Assembly (NCBI RefSeq): GCF_056712565.1
Contig: NZ_CM160072.1
Strand: one strand, 5' to 3'
Length of the DNA stretch: 64,000 nucleotides
The translations under genes and the position numbers were made by a program. Of the stretch, positions 394 through 5,669 are shown piece after piece. How positions within the stretch are numbered: the stretch's first letter is position 1; every line of letters starts with the position of its first letter. Under the pieces are notes generated by a model, which saw only the letters and a list, made by a program, of their open reading frames with translations, ran no database searches and had not been told where the DNA came from.

Positions 394-789
394 GTGATTG
401 TCTGCGCTGAAATGGACGAACAGTGGGGCTACGTCGGTGCTAAATCACGTCAGCGCTGGCTGTTTTACGCGTATGACAGGATACGGAGGACGGTTGTGGC
501 GCACGTCTTCGGTGAACGCACTCTGGCCACACTGGAGCGTCTTCTGAGCCTGCTGTCGGCCTTTGAGGTCGTGGTATAGATGACGGATGGCTGGCCGCTG
601 TATGAATCACGCCTGAAGGGAAAGCTGCACGTTATCAGCAAGCGTTACACTCAGCGCATTGAGCGACATAATCTGAATCTGAGACAACATCTGGCAAGGC
701 TGGGACGGAAGTTACTGTCGTTCTCAAAATCGGTGGAGTTGCATGACAAGGTCATCGGGCATTATCTGAACATAAAACACTATCAGTAA
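394..789 (+). pseudogene. insB: IS1 insB with in-frame TAG stop (577-579) splitting it into two ORFs (394-579, 580-789)
   Basis: ORFs ...SAFEVVV* and [36 protein letters not shown]... are contiguous in frame; recalled canonical InsB reads ...DVVIWMTDGW, so TGG to TAG is implied. Confidence 0.7.
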
Positions 790-876
790 GTTGGAGTCAT
801 TACCTCCTCCCGAACTCAAAGCTATCATACAGATAATTACTGGTTAACCCTATATAGGGCATTTTAAAGTGTTGTG

Positions 877-1250
877 ATCTTACCCAGCAATAGTGGACAC
901 GCGGCTAAGTGAGTAAACTCTCAGTCAGAGGTGACTCACAAGACAAAACAGTTTCAACCAGTAAAAAAACGTAAACACCATTCGCATGAATTTCGTAGTT
1001 AAGATCTGAAGCTTGCAGAATGCATCGGTGTTACTGCCGGAGTCCGTGAACTTAGTCTGCATTAATCACCACAGCTTTACATCTGTCGCAGTAAACAGCA
1101 AAATCAGCAAACTTACTTAATTATATCGAGTGCGATTACAATCGCTGGCGATGGTACAGTTGGTGTGGCGGTCTCAGTCCGGAACAATTTGAAAATCAGA
1201 ATCTCACTTAAAACGGCATCCATTTTACAAAAGATGGCCGTCTGTGTATT
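877..1250 (+). mobile_element. Degenerate IS3-family left-end remnant (terminal repeat TGATCTTACCCAGCAATAGTGGACACGCGGCTAAGTGAG plus decayed orfA 5' region)
   Basis: Terminal IR-like sequence at 877-915 followed by sequence resembling a decayed IS3 orfA start (no intact ATG or ORF); right limit approximate. Confidence 0.5.
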
Positions 1251-1549
1251 TATAATGAATACCTTCTACATGTTTAGAGTGCATAATCCACGACAAGGCG
1301 ATATCCTAAAAATTAGCTAGCAGGCAACTTTGATGGCATAGATAATGTTTTTAGTAAAAAAGAGTTGACTGAATATAATACAGCCTCTTCCTACATAAGA
1401 AGGAATGTGCTCACAAAAAAAACCATTAGTCTGCTTCCTGTTCTTACAATAATCAGTATTATGTATTTTATTTATATAGCAAAATATGCTTGTTACACCT
1501 GTCATAATTAGGCATGGTAAAATTATTGACTGAACCCTGGGGGAGAAAG

Positions 1550-1807
1550 ATGCACAGTGATTATTATAATATGGTTTTTGGTGAAAAATTGGCCAATATT
1601 TTATATGAAGCTAACTCTCAATTTTTTTACGAGAGAAATGTCATAGAAGAGGCAGTCAACGCTTTATTCTGTGAGCGTGAAATAATAAACAACAAGAACA
1701 TAATAAAGAAGCTGATGTTCTTTTTGTCAGATGTTAATCACACCAAGAAAGATGTTGTTCAGAGCGCACTTAATATTATCATTGACATTACATCAGGTGA
1801 TATTTGA
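1550..1807 (+). CDS. Small helical regulator of the YmgB/AriR-like family (hypothetical)
   Basis: ORF 1514-1807 with a GGGGGAG RBS-like sequence before the internal ATG at 1550; C-terminal NNKNII...SDV...K.DVV...L.IIIDITSGD resembles AriR/YmgB-type proteins; AT-rich, horizontally acquired context. Confidence 0.4.
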   Translation: MHSDYYNMVFGEKLANILYEANSQFFYERNVIEEAVNALFCEREIINNKNIIKKLMFFLSDVNHTKKDVVQSALNIIIDITSGDI

Positions 1808-2065
1808 GATTTTACATAAAAGATAATCTCTCAAGGAGTCTTATCTGAAAACGAAATATATAGTCCCTCTCGTTTTGTAATATCGATTGGCTTTGTTGAA
1901 TCGGTTACGTACCCCGGAGCCGGTCATATTTTCAGGTAATACACACGCTTTCAGACATTTCGGCTTTCGTCATTTTGGTATCATGGGCATAGCTTCTGCT
2001 ACCTGACCATCATAATCACGCAGCTTCAGTGAAGCAGTGACCACCTGTTTAACCCGGTGTATCGT

Positions 2066-2285
2066 TATGATCTTATCCAGCAATAATGGACACGCGGCTA
2101 AGTGAACCGCCCCGGGTTTCCTGGAGAGTGTTTTATCTGTGAACTCAGGCTGCCAGATCATCGTTTCCGATGGAAGCATAATAAGCTTTTTCTGCTTCTG
2201 CCGGTGGGATATGGCCCTGCCTTTCCAGCAATCGTCGATTGTTATACCAGTCCACCCACGTGAGTGTGGTCAGCTCATCATACTG
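2066..2285 (-). mobile_element. IS3-family right-end remnant (3' end of transposase orfB plus terminal inverted repeat)
   Basis: Minus-strand translation gives ...CQYDELTTLTWVDWYNNRRLLERQGHIPPAEAEKAYYASIGNDDLAA* followed by terminal repeat (2066-2104); upstream frame closed by stops. Confidence 0.55.
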
Positions 2286-2542
2286 ACACGTGCATTACCC
2301 CTACCGCGATAATGCAACCGTACAATATAGGGCGTTTCCTAAACGCAGCCCTCATCACTCCAATCCAACAAGACACAGCATTTTTGATCACGAAGAAAGA
2401 CAAATAATTTCCGTAAATGTTTCCGTTGTTACAAATAACAACAGTGTTTTACATTTCTTTGGCCTCAGGCCCGCGCATGTTGCCATTCGATGTCATTTTC
2501 CTGACTCGTTTCTTCTTTATGGTGTAGTGTGATCTTCACTTT

Positions 2543-3916
2543 ATGGATGCTAACAATATGAAAAGAAAAATTATTCCCGTGCTAATCGGTTGTACGCTCT
2601 CTTTCTCTGCCCTGGCGGCACAACCTACGGCTGAGCGCTATGTCGTCAGTTTTCCAGAAGGCACGCACGTGAACTACGCCGGCGCATTTGCCAGTGCATT
2701 CCCGAACGGCCTTCCGGTTGGGATAGGTTCTGGCCTGCTGTTCACCGGTAAACAGGGCGATGCCCTGACATTCGCAACCATTACCGATCGCGGTCCGAAC
2801 GCGGATTCACCGAAAGAGGGGAAAAACGAAACTAAAATTTTCGTTACGCCAGATTTCGCGCCGCTGCTGATGACGATTCGTGTACAAAACGGCAAAGCGG
2901 AGGCCATCGATCCCCGTCCTCTGCATGACGATAAAGGCGCGATCAACGGTCTGCCGCTGGCAAGCGACGTGATTGGCTCCACCAATGAAGTGGCCTTCAG
3001 CGACACGTTACATAGACTGAAGGGGGATAATCGCGGGCTGGATACGGAAGGGATCACTCCGGATGGTAAAGGAGGTTACTGGCTGTGCGATGAGTATGGC
3101 CCGTTCCTGATTAACATCGACAGTAAAGGGAAAATCCTGGCAATCCACGGTCCGCAGGCGGCGGAAGGGGAAAAAGCGATTGCGGGCGGTTTGCCAAATA
3201 TCCTCAAATGGCGTCAGGCGAACCGCGGCTTTGAAGGCCTCACCCGTATGCCGGACGGGCGTATTATTGTCGCCGTGCAAAGTACGCTGGATATCGACGC
3301 TAAGAGCAAGAAAAAGGCGCTGTTTACGCGTCTGGTGAGCTTCGATCCGGCAAGCGGAAAAACCGCGATGTACGGTTATCCTATCGACAGCGCGGCCTAC
3401 AGCAAAAACAGCGACGCTAAAATCGGAGACATCGTGGCGCTCGATAACCAGCACATCCTGCTGATCGAACAGGGAAGAGATAAAAACAACAGAATGCGTA
3501 ACCTGATTTACGAGGTCGATCTCAATAAGGCGAGCGACCTGTCAGGCTTCGACAAGCCGGGTGAGTATCCGGAGTTTGATGATGAGAAAACCCTGTCACA
3601 GCGCGGCATTACCCTTGCGCAGAAAACGCAGGTTGTTGATCTGCGCTCCTTGGGCTGGCAGCAGGAGAAGGCTGAAGGGTTGGCGCTGATCGACAGCAAA
3701 ACGCTGGCGGTGGCGAACGATAACGACTTTGGCGTGAAGGTGGCGATGCAACATCCGGTCGAGGGCAAGACATTCAAGGATTATCGGGTGAACGCGGAAG
3801 GAAAGCTGACGCTTGACGACAAGCAGGTTGAAACGACCCTCAGAGTGAAGCCACTGGAGAAACCGGAGTCTGACAGTGAACTGTGGATTGTGACGCTGCC
3901 GGAAGCGTTGAAATAA
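2543..3916 (+). CDS. Exported phytase-like / esterase-like beta-propeller family protein (signal peptide; alternative start at 2558)
   Basis: 457-aa ORF; N-terminal MKRKIIPVLIGCTLSFSALAA signal peptide; motifs DRGPN, GFEGLTRMPDG, NDNDFG reminiscent of phytase-like esterase domain proteins. Confidence 0.6.
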   Translation: MDANNMKRKIIPVLIGCTLSFSALAAQPTAERYVVSFPEGTHVNYAGAFASAFPNGLPVGIGSGLLFTGKQGDALTFATITDRGPNADSPKEGKNETKIFVTPDFAPLLMTIRVQNGKAEAIDPRPLHDDKGAINGLPLASDVIGSTNEVAFSDTLHRLKGDNRGLDTEGITPDGKGGYWLCDEYGPFLINIDSKGKILAIHGPQAAEGEKAIAGGLPNILKWRQANRGFEGLTRMPDGRIIVAVQSTLDIDAKSKKKALFTRLVSFDPASGKTAMYGYPIDSAAYSKNSDAKIGDIVALDNQHILLIEQGRDKNNRMRNLIYEVDLNKASDLSGFDKPGEYPEFDDEKTLSQRGITLAQKTQVVDLRSLGWQQEKAEGLALIDSKTLAVANDNDFGVKVAMQHPVEGKTFKDYRVNAEGKLTLDDKQVETTLRVKPLEKPESDSELWIVTLPEALK

Positions 3917-4119
3917 GTTTATAAGGTACGGACAGCAGTATCGCTTAGTTTTTCAAATTCATGTATGTGAACAATATTGGGGTTCCGGCGTAGACCCCCA
4001 ATGAAAGCGTCACCACGTGAAAACATGCCTGCACGGTTTACACGTCATCTCATGGTGGCAGCCGGTTAACTTTCCTGCTACACCAGTGGAAAAAGGCCAT
4101 AAGCAGTCCGAACAAAAGT

Positions 4120-5215
4120 AAGCGTACAGCGAGGGCCGTATTGACGGGGATGTGTTATTCAGCTGGCAGTGCTATGCGCCACGGAAGCAGTTCGCTGACC
4201 CGGTTGACCGGCCAGTCTGCTATGACGCCAGGCACATGGCGAAGGTAGCTTTCTGGATCCACGTCATTCAGTTTGCACGTCCCGATCAGGCTGTACAGTA
4301 GCGCTCCCCGCTCACCACCATGGCCAGAGCCGAAGAACAGGGTCTTCATCTTTTCACGCAACCAGCTTTCCAGGGATTTCAACAGCGGTTTCGTTTTTCG
4401 CTGACGTTCAGCAAGCCGCTGCTCTGCCGGCATTCCCCTTATATCCGCCTCTATGGCGTACAACTGACCGATCTGCTCTAGGGCTTCTTCCGTCAGTGCT
4501 GACGGGATGCGGACGTGCACATCGTGGATCTTTCGGCGGGCATGAGCCCAGCAGGCAGCTTCCGTTATCCCACCATTGCGATACAGCTCGTTGAACCCGG
4601 CGTACGCATCCGCTTGCAGCACACCGCTGAAGCAAGCAAGATGAGTCTGCGGATGGATGCCTTTTCTGTCCGGGCTGTAAGCGAACCACACTGCAGGTGC
4701 CAACGCTGACCCGGCATTGCGGTCATCACGAACATACGCCCACAACCGCCCGGTCTTCGTCTTCTTATTACCCGGCAGCAGTACCTGGACCGGGGTATCA
4801 TCGGCATGGAGTTTGCCGTCAGTCATGACATAGCCATGAAGCGCCTCTTCCAGCGGAGACAGCAGCCGGCAGCATGCATCCACCCAGCCCGACAGCAGTG
4901 AACGGCTCAGCTCCACACCTTGCCGGCCGTATATTTCTGACTGGCAATACAGCGGGGTGTGCTCTGCATACTTCGAGGTCAGCACGCGGGCCAGCAGCCC
5001 CGGTCCGGCGATACCCCGCTCGATGGGCCGCGAAGGTGCAGGTGCCTGCACGATGGCATCGCACTGAGTACAGGCATGTTTTTCCCGTACCGTCCGGATA
5101 ACCCGGAAGGCGCTACGCATCAACTCCAGCTGTTCGGCGGTATCAGTCTCCTCCTCGCCAGGAACGGGCTGACTCACTGTAACCACCTCCGAAAACAACT
5201 CTGCAATTATCAGAA
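4120..5215 (-). mobile_element. Truncated IS66-family element (right end with terminal GTAAGCG... repeat; 5' part missing)
   Basis: Contains C-terminal two-thirds of an IS66 TnpC-like transposase and an IS66-like terminal sequence near 4120-4150; no tnpA/tnpB upstream. Confidence 0.6.
4155..5198 (-). pseudogene. IS66-family transposase TnpC, N-terminally truncated (347 aa of ~520)
   Basis: ORF retains CxxC zinc-finger and DDE core region typical of IS66 TnpC but lacks the N-terminal leucine-zipper region and tnpA/tnpB partners. Confidence 0.7.
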
Positions 5216-5462
5216 CGCTAGTTTTCCCCTTGTCTCACGAAAGTCCTCCCTCCTTTATCGCGCGTGCGTGCGGAAGCATCTTTTCGCAACAACCCCCCGG
5301 GATTCCGCTACGGCTCTGCCATCGCAATCCCCCCGTTTATCTCCGGACAGCCACATTCCCGATTATTTTTTACGTTTCTCCCCGGTTGTTATGCCAGTGA
5401 AGGTGGCGCGCTGTTTTCATGACCACACCGGCTGGTTTAACAACATCCGGAGGAACATTCTC

Positions 5463-5669
5463 ATGGCTACCCCTGTTTCGCTGATGGATGACCAGATGGT
5501 CGACATGGCGTTTATCACTCAACTTACCGGCTTAACCGATAAGTGGTTTTACAAACTCATCAAAGATGGGGGCTTTCCTGCCCCCATCAAAATGGGGCGC
5601 AGCTCCCGCTGGCTGAAAAGTGAAGTGGAAGCCTGGCTGCAGGCGCGTATTGCACAGTCCCGTCCGTAA
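5463..5669 (+). CDS. alpA: AlpA-family prophage/island transcriptional regulator
   Basis: 68-aa product MATPVSLMDDQMVDMAFITQLTGLTDKWFYKLIKDGGFPAPIKMGRSSRWLKSEVEAWL...; the long upstream ORF extension (4959-) is a frame artefact. Confidence 0.85.
   Translation: MATPVSLMDDQMVDMAFITQLTGLTDKWFYKLIKDGGFPAPIKMGRSSRWLKSEVEAWLQARIAQSRP

Follow-up and report, generated by a model that had tools for sequence, protein, structure and literature searches.

Positions 806-5215 of the window, the stretch of 64,000 nucleotides that was analysed, very probably form an inert mosaic within the leuX genomic island of Escherichia coli (the KpLE2/GI-leuX region). Alignment to reference insertion sequences (IS) identified relics of five elements in this interval, and the cargo lying among them consists of two intact genes, one of the YmgB/AriR family and the other coding for a PF13449 phytase-like protein. 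The mosaic is flanked by the fec operon and IS1F on one side, and by a P4/CP4-like island backbone (AlpA, YfjI, GTPase, Ag43 ... YeeU and a truncated CbtA, CbtA') on the other. This combination of dead IS fragments with two intact accessory genes is an ordinary, previously described patch, and nothing in the interval speaks for an element or a mechanism of a new kind.

The reference alignments place all of the relics and their junctions, with the terminal repeats at the expected tips. The identities to the reference elements are 84-100% for IS3, 95-97% for IS629/IS1203, 99% for ISEc8, 77% for IS903B and 99.6% for IS1F. Other than IS1, the relics are pieces of 35-1,027 bp without an intact transposase and without paired ends, and each of the nested junctions consists of an intact IS tip set against the internal sequence of an older IS. 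A sequence-only reading of this DNA had described an IS graveyard with embedded cargo, shaped by repeated insertion and deletion. This description holds, as every segment it called IS-derived matches a reference IS; the alignments also defined the breakpoints, several of which had to be moved. An Rfam search of window positions 1-23000 gave no match within 806-5215, its sole match being the IsrC/IS102 RNA upstream of Ag43.

The IS1 at the left edge of the mosaic (37-804, + strand; NCBIfam transpos_IS1) has the complete length of 768 bp. It is identical to IS1F of K-12 at 765 of the 768 positions (99.6%), has the same left flank, and is orthologous to that copy. Its ends and insA are intact, while insB carries an internal stop. 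No 9-bp target duplication was found around it (the left flank is ggggatttc, the right flank tcctcccga). A 70-bp spacer (805-874), with no match to the reference IS used, separates IS1 from the first IS3 relic, and the junction between IS1 and position 805 is conserved on plasmid pMRSN346647_113.1. The chromosomal site is the same as that of KpLE2/GI-leuX in K-12 (leuX-intB ... fec-IS1F-yjhU ... fim); GI-leuX has been described as 50 kb in size and as carrying fec, phage remnants and IS elements (PMC4374849). K-12 shares the fecI-ykiE-IS1F junction, the IS1F copy with the same insB stop, and the yjhU-yjhF-yjhG genes on the far side, but it lacks window positions 805-22123 entirely. Because IS1F in K-12 abuts the remnant of a sugar-transporter gene (its last 57 bp), K-12 represents the deleted form; the breakpoints show its IS1F-yjhU junction to be a 21.3-kb IS1-adjacent deletion.

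The first relic inside the mosaic is a decayed, internally deleted IS3 (875-1228, + strand), recognized by BLASTN against IS3A of K-12 and by a Pfam rve_2 match on 1113-1211. Positions 875-1112 correspond to IS3 positions 1-235 (88% identical, with indels; E=1e-82), and positions 1117-1228 to IS3 positions 1131-1242, the end of orfB (84% identical; E=1e-30); IS3 positions 236-1130 are absent. Since the two parts match both end regions of IS3 in the same orientation, they belong to one internally deleted element. The left inverted repeat (TGATC...) lies at 875-915, and 878-937 is identical to IS3A at 60/60 positions; at the other end, the right inverted repeat can no longer be recognized over its last 13 bp. 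The earlier placement of a plus-strand IS3 left end at 877-915 with a decayed orfA start is confirmed, the start codon having changed from ATG to AAG at 940-942. The piece is not a lone end, but an IS3 that runs to 1228. The IS3 pieces are relics and not functional members of the family.

Behind this relic lies AT-rich DNA not derived from any IS (1229-1888), with a GC content of 30-34% over about 1200-1900 in the composition profile. It had been put at 1.1 kb; the AT-richness and the gene within it are confirmed, whereas the non-IS part is only about 650 bp, because the end of an IS903-like element fills 1889-2064. The gene itself (1550-1807, + strand) is intact, codes for 85 amino acids and is preceded by a GGAG ribosome-binding motif. 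Its product scores 27.3 bits against PF10798 (gathering cutoff 22.3), carries the family name in the PGAP annotation as well, and weakly matches the PDB structure of YmgB, 2oxl (E=0.0012). Homologs occur almost only in E. coli and Salmonella plasmids. The gene is a putative small regulator, as had been suggested.

Three further IS ends are packed into the next few hundred base pairs. The element end of about 176 bp at 1889-2064 (minus strand) probably belongs to the IS903 group of the IS5 family: over 1912-2064 it shares 77% identity with IS903B positions 37-199 (E=2e-33), and the inverted-repeat tip at 1889 matches the 18-bp IS903 terminal repeat, GGCTTTGTTGAATAAATC, at 14/18 positions. It contains the C-terminal codons of a transposase and a 10-bp deletion, and in the PGAP annotation this place is a pseudogene named 'IS5/IS1182 family transposase'. 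By its sequence, the piece is a relative of IS903B that is too divergent to be IS903B itself. The sequence-only reading had overlooked it. Within the IS903-like element sits a solo left inverted repeat of IS3 (2068-2105, + strand, 38 bp), with 33/35 positions identical to IS3A positions 1-35 (E=2e-10), and this is cut in turn by the right end of an IS629/IS1203 element (2103-2276, minus strand). The latter aligns to IS1203 positions 1310-1137 with 166/174 identities, is 96.6% identical to an IS629 copy, and retains the right inverted repeat and the last 43 codons of orfB, that is 174 of 1,310 bp. Positions 2277-2285 are not IS-derived. The interval 2066-2285 had been taken for a single IS3-type right end with the C-terminus of orfB on the minus strand; the IS3-family orfB end is indeed there, as IS629/IS1203 and only at 2103-2276, but the single end dissolves into a solo IS3 left end on the plus strand plus the IS629/IS1203 right end.

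These boundaries bear on the idea that opposed IS3-type ends bracket the regulator as a composite-transposon-like unit. The IS3 left end at 875 does face an IS3-family right end at 2103-2276 across the ariR-like gene. The facing ends, however, belong to different elements, IS3 and IS629/IS1203, and for this reason there is no bracketed unit; moreover, the left element is a complete-ended IS3 relic finishing at 1228, the IS903-like end and the second IS3 left end intervene, and target duplications are lacking.

A stretch of 126 bp (2277-2402), with no IS match and outside the homology to the Enterobacter locus described below, connects the IS629 deletion joint to the cargo segment. The presumably captured chromosomal segment (2403-3919, + strand) consists of 155 bp of native upstream DNA followed by the phytase-like gene; a yfaZ-adjacent locus of E. 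hormaechei is 83.6% identical in nucleotide sequence over exactly this interval. The gene (2558-3916, + strand) is intact and codes for 452 amino acids, and the protein scores 148.6 bits against PF13449 (gathering cutoff 27.6). Full-length orthologs of 450-457 amino acids and 64-89% identity occur across the Enterobacterales. A search by sequence turned up no related structure that has been solved, and neither cargo protein has an NCBIfam match. The N-terminus, MKRKIIPVLIGCTLSFSALA followed by AQ, resembles a signal peptide when judged by eye; an exported phytase-like gene had already been suggested at this place.

The segment is followed by an interval at 3920-3999 and by a fragment of a plasmid-type DUF6404 gene (4000-4117, minus strand), comprising the last 80 bp of the gene (4038-4117) and 38 bp downstream. 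The fragment is 90.7% identical to the intact form of this gene on an iroN-carrying plasmid, and the gene was cut by ISEc8. The ISEc8 relic itself (4118-5144, minus strand, 1,027 bp) is an IS66-family element by its alignment to ISEc8, by Pfam (DDE_Tnp_IS66 and the C-terminal domain) and by NCBIfam (transpos_IS66). It is 98.7-99.3% identical to full ISEc8. What is left of the element is the right inverted repeat (GTAAGCG...) together with the 3' two-thirds of tnpC, from whose interior 153 bp have dropped out in frame at 4337-4341. Neither tnpA nor tnpB is present, and tnpC is short of about 132 codons at its N-terminal end, as the earlier account of a truncated IS66 copy had it. Strain FDAARGOS_1289 keeps the pre-deletion state of this locus, and alignment to it shows a 4,382-bp deletion joint at 5134-5148, with tatc microhomology at 5141-5144 and two parents that match at 9/11 positions. 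The deletion took the beginning of tnpC together with tnpB and tnpA, and besides these a pair of zinc-ribbon genes, one inovirus-Gp2-family gene and two hypothetical genes. The joint is carried by only 99 of 5,426 genomes. Even the full-length ISEc8 of FDAARGOS_1289 has no 8-bp target duplication (gaacaaaa vs cactattt), which argues that one of its flanks was rearranged.

The IS events were also thought to have probably removed the island integrase. Over its first 22 kb the window contains no integrase gene, as this idea would have it. Nevertheless, the deletion that truncated ISEc8, as reconstructed from FDAARGOS_1289, held no integrase. In strain HS13-1, which is 99.98% identical over window positions 1-28348, an intact tyrosine integrase directly adjoins tRNA-leuX about 24 kb upstream of IS1, and in related islands the AlpA...Ag43 backbone adjoins variable cargo at its left, not an integrase. 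The island integrase is probably the leuX-adjacent one, outside the window, and the module does not mark a lost integrase. Taken together with the anatomy of the facing ends, this makes a bracketed regulator combined with integrase loss by IS deletion highly improbable.

One of the closest known systems is the SRL pathogenicity island (PAI) of Shigella flexneri 2a, which Luck et al. reportedly described in 2001 and for which a later re-annotation is available (PMC6980539). Compared by gene order, it is like the longer form in FDAARGOS_1289: fec, phytase-like, IS66-family tnpC/tnpB/tnpA, inovirus Gp2 family, AlpA, GTPase, Ag43 and YeeU/YeeV. The SRL PAI lies at serX with a 16-kb resistance locus, whereas the copy in the window lies in the leuX island, minus tnpA, tnpB and five genes. 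The same gene order runs from orf34 to orf47, where orf34 is the phytase-like gene, whose product shares 99.8% identity with the protein family in E. coli, and orf35-37 are tnpC/tnpB/tnpA (PMC6980539, Table 2).

An older loss of a second integrase is possible, given that the full form of ISEc8 has no target duplication. One could imagine that the AlpA...CbtA' backbone was a second, once independent P4/CP4-like island with an integrase of its own immediately to the left of the Zn-ribbon/Gp2/AlpA genes, and that this integrase disappeared in an earlier rearrangement associated with ISEc8, at a time when the SRL PAI and GI-leuX versions had not yet diverged. The rearranged ISEc8 flank would fit such a history, and so would the truncated right end of the backbone (CbtA') and the close neighbourhood of integrase and alpA in CP4-57. 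P4-like genes are, in addition, listed twice in the SRL PAI, as orf2-6 and orf38-57 (PMC6980539, Table 2). In two other E. coli islands, however, the left side of the backbone is variable cargo with no integrase nearby, a leuX-adjacent integrase exists, and no internal repeat of the leuX 3' end (att), with up to 3 mismatches, occurs anywhere in the 64-kb window. A second island with its own integrase is therefore unlikely, and the leuX-adjacent integrase is kept as that of the island. The missing repeat implies that the distal boundary of the island has eroded or is to be sought elsewhere. At its left edge (cactattttatccc...), the conserved AlpA-Ag43 backbone coincides with the ISEc8 terminus to within 1-2 bp, and this edge occurs also in another island, which has no ISEc8.

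About 1,433 of 5,426 complete E. coli genomes, roughly a quarter, carry the module when coverage of at least 80% of its whole length is counted, and 2,123 carry 3920-5144. Sub-blocks with identical internal junctions are found between IS1 copies on plasmids (window 1888-5094; IS1 plus 805-1978), and the junction at 805 is kept while the DNA left of IS1 varies. Both observations would suit a currently active IS1 composite transposon carrying the two cargo genes. We consider this improbable: the IS1 pairs on two plasmids have no 9-bp target duplications, the positions at which IS1 breaks the block vary from plasmid to plasmid (1888, 1978, after 5094), a pattern that deletion next to IS1 or recombination would produce more readily than transposition of a single defined unit, and insB of the chromosomal IS1 is interrupted by a stop codon. 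The flanking ends within 806-5215 also come from different IS. With duplications absent at IS1, at ISEc8 in FDAARGOS_1289 and at the IS1 pairs on the two plasmids, we reject simple insertion or a composite transposon. It is rather doubtful, too, that the 4.3-kb block is kept as a unit by selection on the E. coli-restricted AriR-like regulator and the secreted phytase-like enzyme, with IS1 carrying it back and forth among the leuX island, islands of the SRL type and IncF-type plasmids, and that the left edge of the AlpA-Ag43 backbone marks a discrete site-specific module boundary.

The anatomy of the junctions shows several steps in the formation of the mosaic. An IS903-like element lay beside the AT-rich DNA with the ariR/ymgB-family gene; IS3 entered this element, and IS629/IS1203 entered the left inverted repeat of the nested IS3. 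The other IS3 copy (875-1228) was stripped of 895 bp in its middle and decayed. ISEc8 cut the plasmid-type DUF6404 gene and lost 153 bp in tnpC, and in one sublineage a microhomology-mediated deletion of 4,382 bp took 1.26 kb from the left of ISEc8 along with five genes of the island. In addition, one deletion starting within IS629 may have taken the rest of all three nested elements and joined the nested ends to the DNA upstream of the phytase-like gene. This gene was probably acquired from a chromosome like that of Enterobacter, bringing along 155 bp of its native upstream DNA. The succession of the old events and their count are those that parsimony favours; no genome turned up in which IS629, IS3 or the IS903-like element is still nested at this locus in full length, and since no target duplications survive, some junctions may reflect recombination between IS copies instead of insertion followed by deletion. 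None of the relics should be able to transpose, and movement between island and plasmid would proceed via flanking IS1 copies or homologous recombination. Both cargo genes are probably expressed from their own upstream DNA; a promoter and terminator scan of 780-5500 gave matches at or below chance.

The breakpoint map offers a clean version of a locus that appears in the PGAP annotation as no more than a series of partial transposases, and adds little beyond annotation. The joint of the 4,382-bp deletion could be used to mark the sublineage that carries it, and the cargo genes, being widespread in ExPEC and APEC strains, may merit functional study.

An IS1 copy occupies 37-804, next after fecI-ykiE (the window starts 36 bp before it). 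Farther along come yjhU, yjhF and yjhG, and past yjhG lie ORFs whose agreement with the K-12 fim and uxu genes is one of size and order alone. Taken together, these landmarks place the locus in the leuX genomic island (KpLE2 or GI-leuX), an island of roughly 50 kb with fec, yjhATS, fim, IS elements and phage remnants (PMC4374849). Over 1-28348 the window and E. coli HS13-1 are 99.98% identical, and 806-5215 is 100% identical to many extraintestinal isolates, both human and poultry.

Alignment of reference copies of IS3A (K-12), IS1203, IS629, ISEc8 and IS903B to the window bore out the sequence-only reading that the segments in 806-5215 are IS-derived, but redrew several of their limits. The IS3 left end was real, as was its decayed orfA start (ATG to AAG at 940-942), but its own right end is also present. 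Positions 1-235 of IS3 align at 875-1112 (+ strand, 88% identity, with indels) and positions 1131-1242 at 1117-1228 (+ strand, 84% identity); the two stretches are one IS3 from which the middle ~895 bp is gone and the final 13 bp are unrecognisable. Within this relic the first 60 bp (878-937) are 100% identical to IS3 and the remainder (938-1228) only 84-86%, a step that suggests a mosaic, or a tip converted by an active IS3 copy. The opposed “IS3-type right end” placed at 2066-2285 is IS-derived, yet it consists of two different things on opposite strands: a solo IS3 left inverted repeat at 2068-2105 (+, 33/35 identical) and the right end of IS629/IS1203 at 2103-2276 (-, 166/174 identical), which includes the final 43 orfB codons. 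The ~1.1 kb of AT-rich DNA thought to lie between the IS3 ends does hold an intact small regulator gene, but its non-IS part is only ~1229-1888 (GC 30-34%). The end of an IS903-group element at 1889-2064 (-), with an inverted repeat of 14/18 and 77% identity to IS903B positions 37-199 across a 10-bp gap, had been missed.

At each of the junctions 1889, 2068 and 2103, an intact IS tip stands against internal sequence of the neighbouring element. Three such tip-to-interior junctions are the signature of sequential nested transposition. The IS903-like element would have arrived first, IS3 would have inserted into it, and IS629 into the IS3 left repeat; a single deletion from within IS629 (2276|2277) would then be enough to remove the rest of all three elements.

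The regulator gene (1550-1807) is of the YmgB/AriR family, with a PF10798 match above threshold and a weak match to the YmgB structure; its close homologs are nearly confined to E. coli and Salmonella plasmids. The second cargo gene, at 2558-3916, clearly belongs to PF13449 and its protein appears on inspection to have a typical Sec-type N-terminus, in agreement with its earlier description as exported and phytase-like. Full-length orthologs with 64-89% identity occur in Enterobacter, Pantoea, Scandinavium, Cronobacter, Serratia and Yersinia. The E. hormaechei ortholog adjoins yfaZ, and nucleotide homology to the window covers exactly 2403-3919; the phytase-like gene was therefore captured with 155 bp of native upstream DNA. 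Of a DUF6404 gene cut by ISEc8, the final 80 bp remain (4038-4117); the intact gene is found on an iroN-carrying plasmid.

The IS66-family copy is an ISEc8 relic at 4118-5144 (-, 98.7-99.3% identity). As had been read, it is without tnpA, tnpB and the transposase N-terminus (~132 codons), and retains one terminus and the 3' two-thirds of tnpC. In strain FDAARGOS_1289 this locus has tnpB and tnpA alongside tnpC; two zinc-ribbon genes, a gene of the inovirus-Gp2 family and a pair of hypothetical genes separate them from the same alpA. Compared with this long form, the window is shorter by one clean deletion of 4,382 bp, at which the two ends have tatc in common and the two parents match at 9/11 positions; the ISEc8 truncation is this deletion, directly reconstructed. 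While at least 80% of 806-5215 is covered in 1,433 complete E. coli genomes, and 3920-5144 is carried by 2,123, the deletion joint is present in only 99 of 5,426, so the deletion arose recently, in a single sublineage. The window tnpC also has an internal 153-bp in-frame deletion at 4337-4341. It is common to the chromosomal copies, FDAARGOS_1289 included, and plasmid pSF10EC-2, and so is older than the spread of the module. PGAP calls the 461-aa shortened tnpC of FDAARGOS_1289 an intact CDS.

It had been supposed that IS-driven deletions removed the island integrase. This idea is not supported: the gene content of the deleted 4,382 bp, as seen in FDAARGOS_1289, includes no integrase, and in HS13-1 an intact tyrosine integrase comes directly after tRNA-leuX, at ~24 kb upstream of the IS1. 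In two other islands variable cargo, not an integrase, lies left of the Zn-ribbon, Gp2 and AlpA backbone, and YfjI, GTPase and Ag43 follow where the locus reaches that far. Since, in addition, the 64-kb window has no leuX 3'-end repeat, the layout fits the order tRNA, integrase, cargo, backbone. It is possible, though unlikely, that a second integrase was lost earlier: ISEc8 is without a target duplication even in its complete copy, but the two other islands have cargo at the same position.

The left edge of the AlpA-Ag43 backbone begins cactattttatccc. In an unrelated island of strain K-15KW01, the left edge of the Zn-ribbon/Gp2/AlpA...Ag43 backbone falls within 1-2 bp of the ISEc8 terminus of the present locus (locus L009, 11486-11490; locus L021, ~9000), with no ISEc8 at that edge. 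Such a coincidence may reflect either a discrete boundary of the module or a footprint left by IS66. The P4/CP4-like backbone has lost its right end too, since a CbtA-family toxin gene (17179-17277) is truncated after 33 codons; the YeeU-family antitoxin gene is intact. Upstream of the Ag43 gene, and close to it, is an Rfam IS102 (IsrC) sRNA (10391-10627, 74.6 bits); CP4-44 of K-12 has the same arrangement.

Parts of the module are also found on plasmids. pSF10EC-2 carries window 1888-5094 between two IS1 copies with every internal junction kept, and pMRSN346647_113.1 carries an IS1F-like copy and 805-1978, then IS1A. Because the IS1 pairs of both plasmids are without 9-bp duplications and their IS1 break points differ, these copies point to deletions next to IS1, or to recombination, and away from a single composite transposon of defined extent. 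The window IS1 itself is identical to K-12 IS1F at 765/768 positions, with the insB stop codon in common, and no target duplication was found at its two flanks. K-12 MG1655 lacks the whole of window 805-22123 (21,319 bp), and its IS1F runs straight into the final 57 bp of the gene for a GRP-family sugar transporter (22124 onward in the window). The IS1F-yjhU junction of K-12 is thus an IS1-adjacent deletion. Lost with it were the IS graveyard, the backbone from AlpA through Ag43 to YeeU, and a methylthioribose-salvage-like cluster of mtnK, mtnA, L-fuculose-phosphate-aldolase-like and GRP sugar-transporter genes (18017-22181), which is absent from K-12 and here separates the island backbone from yjhU.

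The ORFs of the Shigella SRL PAI from Luck et al. 2001 have been re-annotated (Table 2 of PMC6980539) as a phytase-like protein (orf34), IS66-family tnpC, tnpB and tnpA (orf35-37), inovirus Gp2 family (orf39), AlpA (orf41), GTPase (orf46), Ag43 (orf47), and YeeU and YeeV (orf52-53), which is the gene order in the long form of the present locus. PGAP already annotates every relic as a partial transposase. The module thus belongs to a kind already known, within an island that has been described before; all that the present analysis adds is its breakpoints at base level, the reconstructed deletion and the comparison with K-12.
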